A stretch of 7,108 nucleotides of DNA, taken from the IMG/VR virus record IMGVR_UViG_2778261165_000002, positions 1-7,108 of that record. One strand, given 5' to 3'. Under the pieces are notes generated by a model. It was not told the DNA's origin and did not search any database. It saw only the letters and a list, made by a program, of their open reading frames with translations. Below are positions 1-6,185 of this stretch, one piece after another. Positions within the stretch are counted from its first letter, which is position 1; every line of letters begins with the position of its first letter. The position numbers and the translations under genes are program-made. Origin of the DNA: a virus. Taxonomy: Duplodnaviria; Heunggongvirae; Uroviricota; Caudoviricetes.

Positions 1-547
1 CATTGCGCCGGGAACCTGAAGCAATAAGGATTTTGTGATCGCGCATCCACGCAAACAGTTTGTTTGGACCAATTCCAACAACCTTTGCAAAGTTTCCAAT
101 CAAAATTCCGCTGGCCTCGCCAACGCGATCGGCAAACTCAACTTTAGGTGCGGCAATTGCGAGCTGGTTTTCCAGTTGCATTTTCTGCTCAGCAAGGTCA
201 GCAGCAAGGCGCAACGCTTCTGGTAGCGTTTTTGGGATATTAACCGCAGCTTCTTCAAGCTCTCGCCAACGGTCAACAAGGCGAGCCGTGAATTCCGGCG
301 ACAACTGGGCAACAACGACAATACTGTCTCGCTTACCTTGTTCGCCCTCGAAGACGTAATGCTCGTACTGAACATTGAACCCTAAGTTATTGATTCTTTC
401 GGAAACCTCAATTTGAGGAAGCCGGATAACACCATTTTTAGCCAGCGTTTCGATGGTACGTTTCACATTGTCATGACGCTTACCAACCAACTCAGCGATT
501 TCAATGCTTGTCATTTTGATGGCATTGCCATTTATTAACTCATTCAT
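1..547 (-). CDS. Phage antirepressor, Rha-like N-terminus with KilAC-like C-terminus; partial, 3' end runs off the window start
   Basis: Hand translation from the ATG at 547-545 gives [48 protein letters not shown]... continuing ...KVEFADRVGEASGILIGNFAKVVGIGPNKLFAWMRDHKILIASGSRRN with no stop before position 1. Absent from the ORF track because no stop lies in the window. The start overlaps the ninF stop (ATGAATGA) and is preceded by AGGAAG. Confidence 0.7.
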   Translation of the reverse strand, partial: MNELINGNAIKMTSIEIAELVGKRHDNVKRTIETLAKNGVIRLPQIEVSERINNLGFNVQYEHYVFEGEQGKRDSIVVVAQLSPEFTARLVDRWRELEEAAVNIPKTLPEALRLAADLAEQKMQLENQLAIAAPKVEFADRVGEASGILIGNFAKVVGIGPNKLFAWMRDHKILIASGSRRN

Positions 548-710
548 CGTCTTCTTCCTCGTACATTGAGCTATTCGGATCGCTCATCAGTTCTGCGCAG
601 CAATCGGAGCACACGTGAACTTCCAGCACATGCAGCTTCTGACCGCAGTTAGCGCACGTTAAAGCCCGCTCGACGCTTTCTTGTTCGTAACTTCGATTTT
701 GGTCAATCAC
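540..710 (-). CDS. ninF: NinF-like small zinc-ribbon protein, 56 aa, GTG start
   Basis: ORF 540..752 trimmed to the GTG at 710-708, which overlaps the ninE stop as GTGA and is preceded by GAGGAA. Contains CANCG...CSDCC cysteine pairs and an acidic tail EEEDDE. The 56-aa length and sequence match my recollection of lambda NinF. Confidence 0.55.
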
Positions 711-889
711 CTTGTATTCCTCGCACGATGTCTTAGCCACCGGATATCCCACAGGTGAGCCGTGTAATTGAAGGTTTTTACGTCAGATTCTTTTGGGATT
801 GGCTTGCGTTTATTTCTGGAGCGTTTCGTTGGAAGGTATTTGCAGTTTTCGCAGATGATATCGGTGAAACTTCGTCGCTGTCGCCTCAT
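707..889 (-). CDS. ninE: NinE-like protein, 60 aa
   Basis: ORF 707..979 trimmed to the ATG at 889-887 ([60 protein letters not shown]). AGGAGG lies 5 nt upstream; the start overlaps the methyltransferase stop as ATGA. Recalled similarity to lambda NinE. Confidence 0.6.
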
Positions 890-1413
890 GCCGCCCTCCT
901 GACGCCCTGCCCGATCGCCATCAATGCCGCTTTGGATACGGTAGTAAACATCCGTCGAGGACTGATGAACGGTCGCCAAATCAGCAGCATGGAGCCTTTA
1001 CTGTTTCCCCTCTTCTCCAGCCCTGTCGATGGTTCGATAAAATTAATCCGTCCATCAGTGATAATGCGAACTTCGTCAACACTCTCCAGAGCCTTGCTGA
1101 ACCATCCGACAGACATATCCTCTGGCACAAGCATCACTACCGTCTGTCGCTGTTGTATGCACTGCTCAGCGGCTTTTTCCACCCACGGCCTGATATTGCT
1201 GTACGGTGGGTTATTCCAGATTGCACCGTGGCTTATCCACTCAGAATTGAGTGCGTCGTCGGCCTCAGTTAGCCAGTGAGCGCACAGAGCATTTTTGTCG
1301 CTCGCAGCTGAATCCAGCCAGAATCCAAACTCAATATCCAGCGCATCAAAAAGCCAAAGCGGCGTTTGCCAGCAGTCCTTGTCGTGTGCTGGTGTATTTG
1401 ATTTGATAGTCAT
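886..1413 (-). CDS. Phage Dam-type DNA N6-adenine methyltransferase, 175 aa
   Basis: NPPY motif (motif IV of N6-adenine methyltransferases) in ...[12 protein letters not shown]..., N-terminal CWQTP segment, and a size typical of phage Dam. The ATG at 1413 overlaps the ninB stop as ATGA. Confidence 0.8.
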
Positions 1414-1856
1414 GCAGCCCTACCTTTTCGTTGTGACCATTCATACTCTCGCCGGGAGTCATCACTCCACCGCACGTTGCGCTCTGAGCCGAACCAGAAC
1501 ATGATTTCGATAAGCTCAGTCATGCTGGCCTTTCGCATTTTGCTGGTACGCACGCCAAGCATGACAACGCCACCATCGATACCAGGCACACTTCGTTGCT
1601 CCAGTTTTTTGGTCTTAAGCCACAGGGCAGTGAACAGGTCTTTCCAGTCCTCCGGCGCAAGTCTCTGTCCATGCCATAGCACCTGACGCGAAACATCGTT
1701 CAGCATCGGCCACATACGGTCATTCTGCGCTTTGCTGCGCTTGGGTTCTTTAACGTGGACTTCGTGGGGTGACTTGTCGTCGATGGGTAGTGAGAGAATG
1801 GCGTCTATGGCGTTATTTCTGATTGCTTCGTTGCGAAGCAGAAAGGTTTGCTTCAT
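1410..1856 (-). CDS. ninB: NinB (Orf-family recombination mediator), 148 aa
   Basis: ORF 1410..1958 trimmed to the ATG at 1856 (MKQTFLLRNEAIRNNAIDAIL...), preceded by GGAGAG. Colinear with recalled lambda NinB, including DVSRQV, GxRMxxxExxELxExxxxFGxERxVxWSD and a C-terminal RAA. Confidence 0.8.
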   Translation of the reverse strand: MKQTFLLRNEAIRNNAIDAILSLPIDDKSPHEVHVKEPKRSKAQNDRMWPMLNDVSRQVLWHGQRLAPEDWKDLFTALWLKTKKLEQRSVPGIDGGVVMLGVRTSKMRKASMTELIEIMFWFGSERNVRWSDDSRREYEWSQRKGRAA

Positions 1857-2049
1857 CTCCTGCTCTCCGGTTCCATTTTTCAGCCGCCGCAGCAACTGAT
1901 GGTGCCCATGCCCCCCTGGCTTCACAGAGGTCACATTCTGCATAGCCCCACACATCAATATTTATTCCGGCCTCAACCCACAGACGAGCATTACCGCCGC
2001 AAAACGGACATTCTTTTAGCTTTGGCTGGGTTAATGATAGGTCGCTCAT
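1813..2049 (-). CDS. Lar-family restriction alleviation protein (zinc ribbon), 78 aa
   Basis: ORF 1813..2055 trimmed to the ATG at 2049, with AAGGAG 5 nt upstream. CPFCGG...(24 aa)...CDLC zinc ribbon followed by AAAAEKWNRRA, matching the Lar family pattern CPFCG...C..C...A..WNRR. The 3' end overlaps the ninB start by 44 nt. Confidence 0.55.
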   Translation of the reverse strand: MSDLSLTQPKLKECPFCGGNARLWVEAGINIDVWGYAECDLCEARGAWAPSVAAAAEKWNRRAGDEANLSASQRSNQK

Positions 2050-2059
2050 GCTCACTCCT

Positions 2060-2275
2060 TCACTTTAAATCCAGACTCCGGATAATTCTGTTGCGCTGAA
2101 ACTCATTGTTGAGTTTGAACAACCGTCGAAGAACACGGTCACGCGGATAGCGTCGTGCGGCAGGTGAATGCTCATACAACTCATCAAGCGGCAAACTGGA
2201 CGATGAACGATACCGATACCAACGCACCAACTCTTCACGAAAATTAGCCCTGGCAAGCTCAGCTATCGTACTCAT
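2060..2275 (-). CDS. Hypothetical protein, 71 aa, arginine-rich
   Basis: ORF with ATG start and GGAGG about 9 nt upstream, in a tight same-strand gene array. No family recognised. Confidence 0.5.
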   Translation of the reverse strand: MSTIAELARANFREELVRWYRYRSSSSLPLDELYEHSPAARRYPRDRVLRRLFKLNNEFQRNRIIRSLDLK

Positions 2276-2405
2276 TTCTTAAAACCTCCTCAAACGCATT
2301 CTGACGCATTTTTCATTCTCGCTGCATTGGCATGCCTTGCACGCGTTTACCTCGCTACAGAGCGATTGTGATGCCTTAAAAGCGATTTATTGAAGTGATA
2401 TTTGC

Positions 2406-2738
2406 TTAATCGAAATTCTTTTCTTTGATTCCTGCGACCCTGATGGCTTTCATTACTGCAATTACCGTTTTGTCACGCCCATCCTCATAACCCATCGCAT
2501 AAGCACCTTCTTCACCATCTTTCCAAAAGTCGTCATTCGATTCGGGCCAGTCGATATCCAGTTCAATAGCTGCTCGCGATGCCTGCCATAAAGTCCACCA
2601 CTCATTTAAGGAGTGACGAATATCCATGCTTGAAAATGCGAAGTACCTATCACCATTTCTTGCCTCGGTTATCATCTCGAATGGTAATTTCAATTTTTTG
2701 GCAACGTATTCCTCAAACTGCTTTCTTGATTCGTCCAT
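2406..2738 (-). CDS. Hypothetical protein, 110 aa, acidic and Trp-rich
   Basis: ORF with ATG start and GAGGGT upstream, 17 nt after the preceding stop. No family recognised. Confidence 0.6.
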   Translation of the reverse strand: MDESRKQFEEYVAKKLKLPFEMITEARNGDRYFAFSSMDIRHSLNEWWTLWQASRAAIELDIDWPESNDDFWKDGEEGAYAMGYEDGRDKTVIAVMKAIRVAGIKEKNFD

Positions 2739-2755
2739 CGATACTTACCCTCAGT

Positions 2756-2962
2756 TCAACTCACAAAACGCCACGCCATTTTTGCTACAGCGACAGGCGC
2801 AACACCGATAATCACCCACAGGAGAATGCTACCGAAAATCACACCCACCAGGTCTTTACCTTCGCCTACCAACCGGACAAAACTGCTGGCAACCACAATG
2901 AACGTCGCCACCATCCACATAGCACCGAGAATCCTCAATGCAGAGAAAATTAACTCAGCCAC
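2756..2962 (-). CDS. Small membrane protein, 68 aa, two predicted transmembrane helices, GTG start
   Basis: Hydrophobic stretches ILGAMWMVATFIVVASSFV and LVGVIFGSILLWVIIGVAPVAV. GTG start preceded by GGGGAGAG, overlapping the stop of the upstream 27-aa ORF. Confidence 0.45.
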   Translation of the reverse strand: MAELIFSALRILGAMWMVATFIVVASSFVRLVGEGKDLVGVIFGSILLWVIIGVAPVAVAKMAWRFVS

Positions 2963-3038
2963 GATTTACTCTCCCCAAAATAAAAAGGCCTGCGATTACC
3001 AGCAGACCTGTTACAAGCTCAGTGATGTAGATGGTCAT
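2955..3038 (-). CDS. Candidate 27-aa hydrophobic peptide (MTIYITELVTGLLVIAGLFILGRVNRG)
   Basis: Its ATG overlaps the helicase stop as TGATG, with AGGAGG 6 nt upstream inside the helicase 3' end. One predicted transmembrane helix. Below the ORF-track size cutoff, so found by hand translation. Confidence 0.3.
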   Translation of the reverse strand: MTIYITELVTGLLVIAGLFILGRVNRG

Positions 3039-4474
3039 CAGAATCCTCCTTTCTTCTTGGACTGCGGTTCCTCGCGTTCACGGCGGCGCATTTCAGCAGA
3101 CTGTTGGTCTGTGTCATAAATAGCGCCATTTGCCTGAATGCAATACACCGTGCCGGTATTGCCATGACGATTGAGACGAAGGATTAGTTCGGTTTCACCA
3201 GGTGGAACACTGTCATCAAAAGCACCTTCACGATGGATCCCCACCCAATAATCGCAATCCTGTTCAATCTGCCCTGTATCGCGCGAGTCACTTGGTAATG
3301 GGCGTTTATTGGTTCGGCTTTCCAGTGCGCGGTTAAGCTGTGTCAGAAGCACAACAACGCAATCAAGCTCTTTGGCAAGGTTCTTCAGTCCTTTGGTGAT
3401 CATGCCGTAAGCAAGGTCGTTGCGATCGGCCTTTTCAGCGGTCATTAGTGTCAGGTAATCGACCAGAATCATGCCAACACATCCTTTTTCTCGCTTGATT
3501 CGACGGCTTTCGCTGACGATTTGAGCCAGAGATAATCCCGGCGTGTCGTCGATGTAAAGCAGGTCGATTTCACTCAAGCGATTGGCTGTTTCGATCGCCC
3601 TGTTGAAGTCACCATCGTAATCACCCTGATAGCCGTCATCAGCGTCATTTGTCGCCGGAATGTAAAAAATATTCGGGTTAACACCTGACTTCTGTCCTAC
3701 CAGCTTTTCCAGTATCTGGTCGCCTGGCATTTCAAGACTGAACATCAGAGCGGGCTTTTTCTCATGCACTGCGCAGTTGATTGCCATCTGGCTGTATAGC
3801 GTCGTTTTCCCCATCTTAGGGCGAGCGCCAATGACGAACAGAGAGCCTTTCACCAGACCTTTCGGTGACAGCATCCTGTCCAGAGATGGGATCCCTGTGC
3901 TCATTCCTCGTTGTTCGCCTGACGGGTCAAATCGCTTCTCAAGGTCGCTAACCCAGTCTTCCATGACCTCACCAAATGAGCGAAGGCCGCGACGCGATCC
4001 GGTTTTTGCATGGTCTGTCAGTTGCGTGAAAATCGCCTGAATAGCTTCGTACTTCTGCGTCGCAGTCATTCCGTTGCGGGAATAGAGCAATTCCGTCGCT
4101 TCAGTCATGCGGTTGATGGCGTAGCGTTCCATTGCGGTTTCACGAACCTGCATTGCATAGGCAACGATGTTTGCTGCGCTTGGCGTGTTCTTTGCGATCT
4201 CAGCGATATAAGCAAAACCGCCAACAGACGCCGTTAACGATTTGCGCTCCAGTTCATCGAAAAGCGTCAGCCCATCTACTGGCTTTTGCTCCCGGTGCAT
4301 TCTGGTTATTTCTTCGAAAAGGATTTTGTGTGGTCGGCTGTAAAATGAATCAGGCTTCAGCATCGCCAGAACTTTCCGGACGCGCTCACTGCTGTCATCA
4401 TCCAGAAGCAATCCACCAATCACCGCCTGCTCTGCCTCGATGCTATGGGGCGGCGCATAAAAATTATCGGTCAT
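3038..4474 (-). CDS. DnaB-family replicative DNA helicase, 478 aa
   Basis: DnaB-like N-terminal domain (IEAEQAVIGGLLLDD), Walker A GARPKMGKT, Walker B-like ILVDYLTLM. ORF 3038..4489 trimmed to the ATG at 4474 (GAGGG upstream); the ORF-track start at 4489 is a GTG. Confidence 0.9.
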   Translation of the reverse strand: MTDNFYAPPHSIEAEQAVIGGLLLDDDSSERVRKVLAMLKPDSFYSRPHKILFEEITRMHREQKPVDGLTLFDELERKSLTASVGGFAYIAEIAKNTPSAANIVAYAMQVRETAMERYAINRMTEATELLYSRNGMTATQKYEAIQAIFTQLTDHAKTGSRRGLRSFGEVMEDWVSDLEKRFDPSGEQRGMSTGIPSLDRMLSPKGLVKGSLFVIGARPKMGKTTLYSQMAINCAVHEKKPALMFSLEMPGDQILEKLVGQKSGVNPNIFYIPATNDADDGYQGDYDGDFNRAIETANRLSEIDLLYIDDTPGLSLAQIVSESRRIKREKGCVGMILVDYLTLMTAEKADRNDLAYGMITKGLKNLAKELDCVVVLLTQLNRALESRTNKRPLPSDSRDTGQIEQDCDYWVGIHREGAFDDSVPPGETELILRLNRHGNTGTVYCIQANGAIYDTDQQSAEMRRREREEPQSKKKGGF

Positions 4475-5363
4475 CGTGTTCACCCTCACGAACTTTCAGG
4501 TAGGTATTGTCGTTAAGCAGGAAATCAAATCCCTTTTTGTGCCAGACGGTTCCGCGTTGATGGTTTGGGCGTTCTTCGAACATCCATCGGCAATTTTCGC
4601 CTACGTAGATCAAATAATTTCTCCAGTCCTGCATCGTGAACCCATGCCCGTCAAGCTGGCGGGTTATCACTCCGGCTTTGCGCCAGAACGTTCGGATCTG
4701 GTTTTTACGCTTGTCATTCAGTGCGCGGATTTTTGGCGCTTCAGGAAGGATTTCGTGGTAAGCATCGACAACATCCTGACAGCTAACGGAAGTTTTTTTC
4801 TTGTCAGACTTTTTGTCTGCTGTGGCACTCTCTAATACGTCAGTATTAGAGATAATATTATTATATTCTTTATCTGTGGTAATTTGCTGGTAATCTGCTG
4901 GTACAGTATTGCTTACAGGCATTGGTATTGCTGGCTTTGAGGTGGTAATTTGCTGGTAATCTGCTGGTACAAAATTTGACTGATAATCGTCATATTTCTC
5001 TACCGAGAAAACTGAGAATTTACCGTGTGAAACCCAGTCAATCATGCCGAGTTTTTTGAACTTTCTAAGCAGGTACTGAACGCGATCTGGTTTGAGTCCT
5101 GTTTCAAACGCCAGAGAGTTTCTACCGCCAAGTAGCTTCCCTCTGCCTACCAGAATTTCTCCTGCGTCAGTCATTACATACTCAGGCGTATGCTTTGCTT
5201 TGAGGATTAAGTGAACCCACAGATGCGCTGCTTCTGCGTCCTTGTAAAACGGCACATCCATAATTTTACGGTGCAGCAAGGCATACCCCTTACCGCTGCT
5301 TTGATGCGGTTGTTGTAGCCTTCTGGCCTCTCTGGCTTCGGCTAGATTAGATATGTTACTCAT
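4464..5363 (-). CDS. Replication initiation protein (lambda O functional analogue, non-lambda sequence), 299 aa
   Basis: Sits between cII and the helicase. Strong RBS AAGGAG 7 nt before the ATG. Iteron-like direct repeats lie inside the coding sequence and encode a duplicated [10 protein letters not shown] peptide. Stop overlaps the helicase start by 11 nt. Confidence 0.7.
4876..4971. repeat. Putative replication origin iterons inside the initiator gene
   Basis: Two identical 30-bp direct repeats (4876..4905 and 4942..4971), each with two copies of TGCTGGTA spaced 11 bp apart, plus a degenerate copy near 4929. An AT-rich tract (about 4840..4875) adjoins on the downstream side relative to the initiator gene. 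Confidence 0.6.
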
Positions 5364-5502
5364 GACCTTTCTCCTTCTGCATCAGCTTCACTTTTTCCAA
5401 CTCAGCCCGGAATCGACCAGGCTGCTTGAAGCTGGACAGGAAGCGATCACGTAGTATGTGTTTGTGAATTTTGTCCTGGTAAGGACTGAGTTGTTTTGTC
5501 AT
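5356..5502 (-). CDS. Hypothetical 48-aa protein at the position of the lambda O start
   Basis: Hand translation gives [53 protein letters not shown] lies 5 nt before the ATG in the sequence context I recall for the lambda O start (CAGGAGTNATTATGACAAA). Its stop overlaps the initiator start, and it is in a different frame from the initiator. Confidence 0.4.
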
Positions 5503-5512
5503 AATTACTCCT

Positions 5513-5591
5513 GTGGATTGATCCAGTAATTCCCTCAGAATTCCATCTGGATTTGTTCAGAACGCTCGGTTGCCGCCGGGCGTTTTTTATT
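5513..5591 (+). ncRNA. oop: oop antisense RNA (about 79 nt), overlapping the cII 3' end
   Basis: Plus-strand sequence GTGGATTGATCCAGTAATTCCCTCAGAATTCCATCTGGATTTGTTCAGAACGCTCGGTTGCCGCCGGGCGTTTTTTATT closely matches recalled lambda oop. A CATAAT -10 element lies at 5500..5505. Confidence 0.7.
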
Positions 5592-5828
5592 GGTGAGAAT
5601 CGAAGCAACTTGTCGTGCCAATCGAGCCATATCGTCGTCAACGACGCCCCATTCAAGAACAGCAAGCAGCATTGAGAACTTTGGAATCCAGTCCCTCTTC
5701 CACCTGCTGATCTGCGACTTATCAACTCCAACAGCTTCCGCTGTCTTCTCAGTTCCAAGCATTGCGATTTTGTTAAGCAACGCACTCTCGATTCTTAGAG
5801 CCTCGTTGCGTTTGTTTGCACGAACCAT
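5535..5828 (-). CDS. cII: Transcriptional activator CII, 97 aa
   Basis: [97 protein letters not shown] is essentially recalled lambda CII. RBS and start context TAAGGAAATACTTACATATG as in lambda. The ORF-track N-terminal extension from 5915 is rejected. Confidence 0.92.
5563..5591 (+). terminator. Intrinsic terminator of oop (tO-like)
   Basis: Stem CGCTCGG / CCGGGCG (one G-U pair) with loop TTGCCG, followed by TTTTTTATT. Confidence 0.7.
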
Positions 5829-5838
5829 ATGTAAGTAT
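5806..5838 (+). promoter_or_regulatory. pRE-like CII-dependent promoter directed toward cI
   Basis: TTGC-N6-TTGC CII-binding repeats at 5806..5819 inside cII codons 3-7, with AAGTAT at 5833..5838 as the -10. Arrangement as in lambda pRE. Confidence 0.7.
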
Positions 5839-5861
5839 TTCCTTAACAAATAAGAAGTTAT

Positions 5862-5879
5862 GCGCATCAACTTATGCGC
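5862..5879 (-). terminator. Possible tR1-region hairpin between nutR and cII
   Basis: 6-bp stem GCGCAU / AUGCGC with a 6-nt loop, followed by a moderately U-rich tract (AUAACUUCUUAUUUGUU). Weak as an intrinsic terminator; lambda tR1 is Rho-dependent. Confidence 0.3.
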
Positions 5880-5884
5880 GTTGT

Positions 5885-5930
5885 ATTCCCGCATTTCGGC
5901 GGGAATGAGGACCATGACTGTTAAAGAGCG
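5885..5930 (-). promoter_or_regulatory. nutR-like site (boxA plus boxB hairpin)
   Basis: On the transcribed strand, boxA CGCTCTTTAACAG (5918..5930) lies just after the cro stop. It is followed by a hairpin ATTCCCGC-CGAAAT-GCGGGAAT (5885..5906) whose loop contains GAAA. Confidence 0.6.
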
Positions 5931-5937
5931 GTGTTAC

Positions 5938-6162
5938 TTATGCTGCCTGATTCGGTTTTGGAAACAGGTGTGGCAAATCGGGGCGAATTTCGTAAGCCTT
6001 GATCTGCCCTCCAGTGGCGTTAACGATGGCGGTAACTTTCTCTGGAGAGACCAATCCGCCTTTCAGCCATTTGTGTACTGCTGGCTGCGTTACACCACAC
6101 TTGTCGGCAAGGCGCTTTTGGCTACCGACAATTTTCAAGGCTCGTTGAATTACTAAATTCAT
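5938..6162 (-). CDS. cro: Cro-type repressor, 74 aa
   Basis: Divergent from the repressor gene and immediately downstream of the operator/pR region. AAGAGG 7 nt before the ATG at 6162. HTH-like segment QKRLADKCGVTQPAVHKWLKGG and a C-terminal tail resembling lambda Cro (LFPKPNQAA versus PFPSNKKTTA). Confidence 0.75.
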   Translation of the reverse strand: MNLVIQRALKIVGSQKRLADKCGVTQPAVHKWLKGGLVSPEKVTAIVNATGGQIKAYEIRPDLPHLFPKPNQAA

Positions 6163-6185
6163 GAGCATACCTCTTGTGGTCATTA

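Follow-up and report, generated by a model that had tools for sequence, protein, structure and literature searches.

Where does lambda sequence end in the early-right region of a lambdoid prophage, and what is the small open reading frame (ORF) that stands there in the place of the replication gene O? These questions are raised by the IMG/VR virus record IMGVR_UViG_2778261165_000002 (Caudoviricetes), of which positions 1 to 7,108, 7,108 nucleotides (nt) in all, were analysed as one stretch (hereafter, the window). Based on the ORF list and on Pfam and PHROG profile searches, the minus strand of the window is a lambdoid early-right region, in which cro, cII, the oop region, an ORF of 48 amino acids (aa), O, a helicase gene and the nin-region genes follow one another, the same gene order as in P22, HK022 and HK620. 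The 48-aa ORF (5356..5502, minus strand; 48 codons and TAA), called orf48 below, had been described in the original prediction as lying at a mosaic breakpoint in the place of O, on the ribosome-binding site and ATG of lambda O and in a different frame from the initiator that follows. Its length alone says little, given that the window holds 69 ORFs of at least 30 aa. The explanation that we favour, with a probability of roughly 0.85, is that a lambda-type cII-oop segment has been joined, at the edge of a known linker, to a module consisting of orf48, an HK022-type O gene and a DnaB-like helicase gene in an Escherichia coli lambdoid prophage.

The alignment with the lambda genome (NC_001416) bears out the predicted course of the homology. 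A gapless minus-strand alignment of 334 nt, running from the start codon of cII through the eighth base of orf48 (ATGACAAA), shows 96.1% identity between the window and lambda. The last base common to both is window position 5495; divergence starts at the ninth base of the ORF, corresponding to lambda 38694, and beyond 5495 the identity is 20-28% over the next 30-300 nt. Local alignment to lambda past this breakpoint detected no similarity, with a score of 15 against 16.4 +/- 2.0 for shuffled sequence. On the left, homology to lambda extends to about 343 nt upstream of the orf48 ATG, a point immediately preceding the cII ribosome-binding site. The start signals of orf48 are those of lambda O: the Shine-Dalgarno sequence AGGAG (5508..5512, minus strand), 5 nt 5' of the ATG, is the one used by O in lambda, and the ribosome-binding site, the ATG and the first 8 nt are the same in both.

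This breakpoint coincides with a published junction. Hayes et al. 2012 (PMC3349717) give a 33-base-pair (bp) oop/pO consensus as ACTGGATCaATCcACAGGAGTaATTATGaCAAA, pO being the oop promoter, and passages of the same paper credit the linker to Clark et al. 2001 as 'sequence 5'. The window sequence ACTGGATCAATCCACAGGAGTAATTATGACAAA (5495..5527, minus strand) matches this consensus at 33 of 33 positions, with linker membership set at a match of at least 90%; it is a single match, with 0 expected by chance. Because the consensus matches exactly at 5495-5527 and the last base shared with lambda is 5495, the lambda breakpoint is the right-hand end of the known linker. In the report of Hayes et al. 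(2012, PMC3349717), the point at which a lambda/P22 hybrid leaves lambda is base 38694, the ninth of O, at position -19 of pO; the hybrid pO has a -10 that is shared and a -35 that differs between lambda and the P22-type module, and the orf48 of P22 is missing from lambda. The same linker, the same divergence base and a hybrid pO are found in the window, except that the published hybrid bears P22 genes 18-12, whereas the window prophage bears an HK022-type O and helicase. HK022 itself has a cII that differs from that of the window and joins the window sequence at the oop terminator; a single base then differs through orf48 and the first ~210 nt of the initiator in the aligned stretch, and it is the one base by which this 5' part of the initiator departs from HK022 O (U02466, alignment A1). 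What the window shares with all of lambda, HK022, P22 and HK97 is the short oop/pO stretch.

The linker is itself variable. Upstream of an identical orf48 it occurs in six variants (IMG/VR loci L021-L100), and the exact lambda allele, ACTGGATCTATCAACAGGAGTCATTATGACAAA, is present in six loci with identical orf48; crossovers have therefore also fallen inside the linker or right at its end. It is conceivable, as a speculation, that lambda lost orf48 by a microhomology deletion between the similar start contexts ATGACAAA and ATGAGTAA, the latter being the start of the initiator gene.

The ORF at this junction is a known gene. A tblastn search found it in 136 phage records, with at least 80% coverage in 135 of the 136, and the frame is intact in relatives. 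The protein is 100% identical to orf48 of HK022 (U02466, AF069308; 48 aa), to hkaW of HK620 and to its counterparts in HK630, mEp043, mEp235, Sf101, VT2-Sakai (where the gene is named H0097) and other Shiga-toxin phages. Identity falls from 85.4% with orf48 of P22 (~85% with its counterparts in P22 relatives) to 58% with an Erwinia phage homolog and 35-42% with homologs from Klebsiella and Enterobacter phages. In addition, it matches the Pfam family DUF2740 (PF10872) over model positions 1-43 of 43 with 99.4 bits (E=8.9e-29; gathering cut-off 27 bits) and phrog_1913 with E=2.7e-28, and it was found in 400 of 5426 complete E. coli genomes (~7%). The GenBank annotation of HK022 (U02466) already describes it as 'orf48 ... 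sequence well conserved in phage P22', passages of Hayes et al. 2012 (PMC3349717) attribute HK022 orf48 to Oberto et al. 1994, and in the P22 literature orf48 is an ORF of unknown function. A literature search for 'DUF2740' found no paper, and one for 'hkaW' returned unrelated word matches only; two papers on mosaicism are silent on this locus.

The DUF2740 family is small, since an exhaustive HMMER profile search of 1.84 billion representative proteins returned only 17 hits or clusters. No informative domain fusion was present among these 17 hits; two apparent fusions were rejected, P0060 as a frameshifted c1-orf48 read-through and P0061 as a spurious repeat protein. The named members all come from Enterobacterales genomes, phages or prophages, with the exception of a 386-nt contig labelled Xanthomonas pisi.

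The substitution pattern was used to judge the coding status of the frame. The ratio of nonsynonymous to synonymous substitution rates (dN/dS), estimated by the Nei-Gojobori method, is 0.25 between the window and P22, 0.27 between the window and Erwinia, 0.35 between P22 and Erwinia and 0.20 between the Klebsiella and Enterobacter phages, against 0.56-2.16 for the two remaining frames. Codon positions 1, 2 and 3 hold 12, 12 and 29 variable sites, respectively, in the divergent clade, where 15 codons vary in a purely synonymous manner; in the other clade, synonymous variation is seen at codons 13, 16, 19, 20, 22, 30, 32 and 38. The residues H13, K14, R18 and D19 are invariant across 18 aligned members, R20 is close to invariant, and the length of 48 codons is kept by every full-length homolog, even at 35% identity. 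Based on the Pfam match and the substitution pattern, we judge that orf48 is a genuine small protein-coding gene of the DUF2740 family.

The surroundings of the gene are far less constant. The 147 bp of orf48 are ~90-100% identical in phages whose flanks are unalignable on both sides (alignment A4), and the sequence diverges directly after ATGAGTAA (5356..5363, minus strand), which marks a second mosaic joint at the 3' end of orf48. An identical orf48 protein occurs in 81 IMG/VR loci, 67 of which share one DNA allele; their flanks fall into 4 upstream and 2 downstream sequence types, and all 8 combinations occur. In the alleles P0006 and P0008, N- and C-terminal variant residues of the E. coli and P22 forms are mixed. 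The gene also follows unrelated upstream sequences of the P22 c1 type and the YdaT type. Because the identical protein is found in all flank combinations and the flanks are unalignable, the comparison indicates that orf48 is a conserved island of 147 bp with a mosaic joint on either side, one of them being the lambda breakpoint. The prediction of a module-exchange junction thus holds, with orf48 flanked by reassorting modules at a published linker junction. It had left open whether the junction created or preserved the small gene; preservation is what stands, given that a conserved family under purifying selection lies behind unrelated upstream sequences. In the most divergent DUF2740 clade (Enterobacter phage CobraSix, L006 1869-2411; a Scandinavium metagenome-assembled genome, L018), the upstream gene encodes a YdaT_toxin domain (PF06254) and not Phage_CII, and no 33-bp oop linker is present, so DUF2740 genes also occur away from the oop junction.

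At the 3' end, orf48 overlaps the initiator gene as predicted. The stop codon TAA (5358-5356) lies within ATGAGTAA, and the ATG in the same octamer (5363-5361) opens a 299-aa initiator; the two frames differ because their starts are 139 nt apart. This octamer is identical in 81 of 81 IMG/VR loci that have the same orf48 protein, and each of 16 diverse loci has an 8-nt overlap of the form (A/G)TG(A/G)(G/A)TAA, giving 97 of 97 in total. The initiator Shine-Dalgarno sequence, AAGGAG (5371..5376, minus strand), is encoded by orf48 codons 43-44 (Lys-Glu), so the last codons of orf48 contain both the Shine-Dalgarno sequence and the start codon of the replication gene. The gene that begins at this overlap comes from at least three unrelated families, namely Phage_rep_O initiators (P22 gp18, mEp043), the HK022-O type without that domain and a T5orf172-domain protein (Salmonella phage S137), and these proteins all begin with M/V-S/G/D-N because the octamer is common to them. 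Further on comes a gene for a DnaB-like helicase or a toprim primase-helicase; a linkage of orf48 to DnaB-like helicases was considered and rejected, since the mEp043-type and S137-type modules have the toprim primase-helicase. In S137 (L009, 3140-3742), what follows orf48 is not an initiator but a 200-aa T5orf172/MUG113-domain protein, with the ATGAGTAA overlap and an MSN start; after it come an HTH_36/DnaD_N-like protein and then a primase-helicase, which is an unusual way for a replication module to begin.

Predicted RNA structure at the orf48/initiator junction gave no clear sequestration of the initiator Shine-Dalgarno sequence. Within orf48, an 8-bp hairpin, CAGCCUGG-UCGAUU-CCGGGCUG, is found at window positions 5403-5424 (minus-strand RNA), spanning codons 27-34, which encode the turn between two helices. 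The 106 nt around it fold with z = -2.19; in P22 the hairpin is retained through a G-U pair, the corresponding stretch of the Erwinia homolog forms another small hairpin, and no hairpin is present in the Klebsiella/Enterobacter clade.

The 5' end carries conserved signals as well. The start context CAGGAG(T/G)AAT(T/A)ATG is kept even in the Erwinia, Klebsiella and Enterobacter phage homologs, and the first 26 nt of orf48 hold the -10 and -35 positions of pO on the opposite strand. The oop promoter had been predicted to lie inside the ORF. This is true of the -35 position (TGGTAA, 5477..5482, plus strand, opposite codons 7-9); the promoter as a whole straddles the 5' end of orf48, as the -10 hexamer CATAAT (5500..5505, plus strand; the reverse complement of ATTATG) covers the start codon and 3 nt upstream of it. 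With a TG at 5497-5498, the window pO has a good extended -10; its -35, separated by a 17-nt spacer, is weak, matches TTGACA at 3 of 6 positions and is not homologous to the lambda -35. The -10 corresponds to the oop promoter of P22 (NC_002371, complement 32346..32374, -3 to +26 of orf48), in which the equivalent -35 hexamer is TGGTCA. A Tyr8/Asp8 polymorphism (TAC or GAC) switches this hexamer between TGGTAA and TGGTCA, with 3 or 4 of 6 consensus matches, and because codon 8 alters the pO -35 in this way, one base may be selected at once for its effect on the protein and for that on the antisense promoter.

Downstream of pO, a plus-strand stretch at approximately 5512..5592, which runs into the 3' end of cII, differs hardly at all from lambda oop; its extent is taken from Hayes et al. 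2012 (PMC3349717), who place OOP at -10 to -90 relative to the ATG. The OOP-like RNA folds into two stem-loops (-29.8 kcal/mol, z = -4.19), and a terminator scan placed an intrinsic terminator with a 12-pair stem, followed by a T run, at 5559..5586 (plus strand). Rfam searches, at the gathering threshold over the whole window and at E up to 10 over 5300-5900, returned no OOP family and only terminator-driven noise. This stretch is a candidate OOP antisense RNA locus, with a lambda-like sequence, a terminator and a predicted stable fold, and with a -35 that differs from that of lambda, scores only 3 in 6 and was not called in a promoter scan.

The slot between cII and the initiator is also occupied in other ways. 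For orf48 of P22 and HK022 and for hkaW, the gene is the same, and so are the slot between cII/c1-oop and the initiator and the 8-nt initiator overlap; the window differs in nothing substantive from P22 or HK022 here, and its pairing of a lambda-type cII with an HK022-type O is among the eight flank combinations. Lambda translates its initiator directly from the linker site, whereas in the window a 48-codon gene comes first and the initiator begins at ATGAGTAA. Lambda O (MTN...) and the initiators after orf48 (MSN...) begin alike, and several of the latter are Phage_rep_O homologs; the window initiator, on the other hand, has no detectable DNA similarity to lambda O and no match to Pfam Phage_rep_O. 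In HK97, the same slot, linker, ribosome-binding site and ATG are used by gp53 (53 aa; NC_002167, L019 1221-1382), whose first ~11 codons resemble those of orf48 (MTK..YQxK, over the pO -35), whereas its remainder is unrelated and has no DUF2740 match; gp53 overlaps O by 14 nt, compared with 8 nt for orf48. As a second, unrelated small ORF at the same position, gp53 suggests that the slot itself is favoured. Since gp53 shares only the first ~11 codons with orf48, the comparison also suggests that the N-terminal codons of orf48 are constrained by pO in addition.

These observations must be weighed against explanations in which orf48 is no functional gene. One is that it is functionless and accidental, a frame that happened to be open behind the lambda O start signals. 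The ORF does begin exactly at the breakpoint and reuses the ribosome-binding site and ATG of lambda O, and short ORFs are common in the window. The comparative data refute this explanation: the same ORF stands behind the unrelated P22 c1-type and YdaT-type upstream sequences, it forms a Pfam family, its dN/dS is 0.2-0.35 in its own frame only, variation is biased to the third codon position, and 48 codons are kept at identities as low as 35-58%. Practically no chance is left to it. More serious is the idea that the 147 bp owe their conservation solely to a role as DNA, or as a leader acting in cis (through pO, as a homology patch or in delivering ribosomes), with the amino acids irrelevant. 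Both ends of the ORF indeed overlap conserved DNA signals, the overlap octamer is invariant, HK97 gp53 shares only the pO region of the same slot, lambda does without the ORF, and a hairpin, with a modest z of -2.19, is predicted within it. However, the core HKNIxRDRF and the second helix lie off both DNA signals and are conserved as protein while their codons vary synonymously, and DNA-only constraint would not yield a dN/dS of 0.2-0.35 in one frame and ~1-2 in the others. Because the synonymous variation falls in the central codons, distant from the signals at both ends, constraint on the DNA alone is insufficient, and we consider this explanation improbable.

Alternatively, orf48 could be a small regulator of a known kind, such as one resembling CIII, or a structural tail protein. 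The gene adjoins cII, and its amphipathic-helix character with a QPG turn is presumably reminiscent of lambda CIII, which we took as a lead only. The label 'tail protein' comes from phrog_1913 and has been copied into the RefSeq records of P22 (NC_002371), HK620 (NC_002730) and others. The AlphaFold2 model, built on a 23-sequence alignment, has helices at residues 7-25 and 28-44 with a mean predicted local distance difference test (pLDDT) score of 82, so the protein is predicted to be a basic two-helix hairpin with a net charge of about +6. A search of PDB sequences with the family profile gave chance hits only (E >=0.095), a Foldseek comparison of the model with PDB and BFVD gave nothing, such a hairpin being too simple to inform, and PADLOC and NCBIfam gave no match. 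The CIII resemblance was rejected, as hhalign against lambda CIII returned a probability of 0.9% over 11 columns. P22, moreover, carries its own c3 gene. A tail function is not supported either, because in every examined locus the gene sits in the early-right operon, between cII-like and replication genes and away from the tail genes, and a tail component of only 48 aa would be implausibly short. Since the gene position is invariably in the early operon, the 'tail protein' label spreading in RefSeq appears to be an annotation error, and an identity of orf48 with any of these proteins is very improbable.

The explanation that we prefer, a lambda-type cII-oop segment joined at the linker edge to an orf48-bearing replication module, may be put in terms of a sequence of events. 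The linker ends with ATGACAAA, which opens O in lambda and orf48 here. Having loaded at AGGAG-N5-ATG, ribosomes would translate orf48 and come to its stop codon right over the start codon that follows, and the first replication gene would probably be coupled to orf48 by termination-reinitiation. The island and its two conserved ends would serve as homology patches for the recombinational exchange of cII-type and replication-type modules, and the basic two-helix hairpin, encoded at the head of the replication operon, would be a trans-acting accessory that is not essential. A bolder version, tentative and with the odds well against it, is that orf48 is a portable adapter whose ends are kept as a recombination hinge, by which any replication module can be connected to the cII-oop expression signals, and whose product tunes the start of phage replication in trans, whichever initiator is present. 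Its target would then have to be common to all modules, such as a host replication or proteolysis factor or a transcript of the ori region.

Several points weigh against this picture. A search for expression or phenotype data yielded no direct evidence that the peptide is produced or has a function, and a generic sigma-70 scan of 5300-5950 did not call pO. Lambda and other O-type phages do without orf48, so lambdoid replication in general does not require the gene. Nor is coupling strictly needed, since every downstream gene comes with a Shine-Dalgarno sequence of its own. In addition, the conservation of the ends may be due in part to the overlapping DNA signals (pO and the next translation start) and not to the protein, and the hinge role is deduced from patterns of reassortment, not from observed recombination.

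The remaining genes of the window fit the lambdoid map. The repressor gene (6244-6981, plus strand) lies on the strand opposite to the rest of the early-right genes, and a cro-like gene is found at 5938-6183 (minus strand). The lambda-type cII (5535..5828, minus strand; 97 codons and a stop) aligns with lambda cII at 38360-38653; its start was chosen from the lambda homology, the mechanical ORF being longer, and in the matching E. coli genome the Prokaryotic Genome Annotation Pipeline (PGAP) annotates it as 'lambda phage CII family protein' with 294 nt. The HK022 O-type initiator gene (4464..5363, minus strand; 299 aa) matches phrog_345, 'replication initiation O-like', with E=2.6e-86. It is followed by the gene for a DnaB-like replicative helicase, the 'P' gene of HK022 type (3038..4474, minus strand; Pfam DnaB E=5e-31, DnaB_C E=2.9e-60), which has 1437 nt in the PGAP annotation. 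Three small nin-region ORFs (2406-2738, 2756-2962 and 2060-2275, minus strand), labelled only as hypothetical where the matching genome is annotated, sit between the helicase gene and a Lar-family gene, which precedes ninB.

The matching genome is that of E. coli Z1323CEC0004, whose chromosomal prophage equals the whole window at 100% identity save for a 66-nt length difference in the initiator gene; in it, PGAP labels orf48 'DUF2740 family protein' (WP_000166207.1). The difference falls at iteron-like direct repeats inside the initiator gene (4876..4976; GTGGTAATTTGCTGGTAATCTGCTGGTACA...), which consist of two 35-nt copies with 94% identity, placed 66 nt apart and with an internal 11-nt period. 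The Z1323CEC0004 prophage is exactly 66 nt shorter there, with an initiator of 277 aa in place of 299 aa, so near-identical prophages differ in the number of repeat units. The HK620 annotation has a rep_origin at the equivalent place, and the repeats are probably the replication origin.

Taken as a whole, this arrangement is already known from Hayes et al. 2012 (PMC3349717) and the GenBank annotation of U02466, and the locus mainly confirms the textbook modular evolution of lambdoid phages at one of their best-mapped joints. What the survey adds is that orf48 reassorts freely with at least four cII-side modules and several replication-side modules, and that the 'tail protein' label in RefSeq and PHROG is not supported by the genomic context. 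The interest that remains lies in the role of a widespread 48-aa protein, present in P22 and several Shiga-toxin phages, and in the possible coupling of this protein to the replication gene through their invariant overlap.

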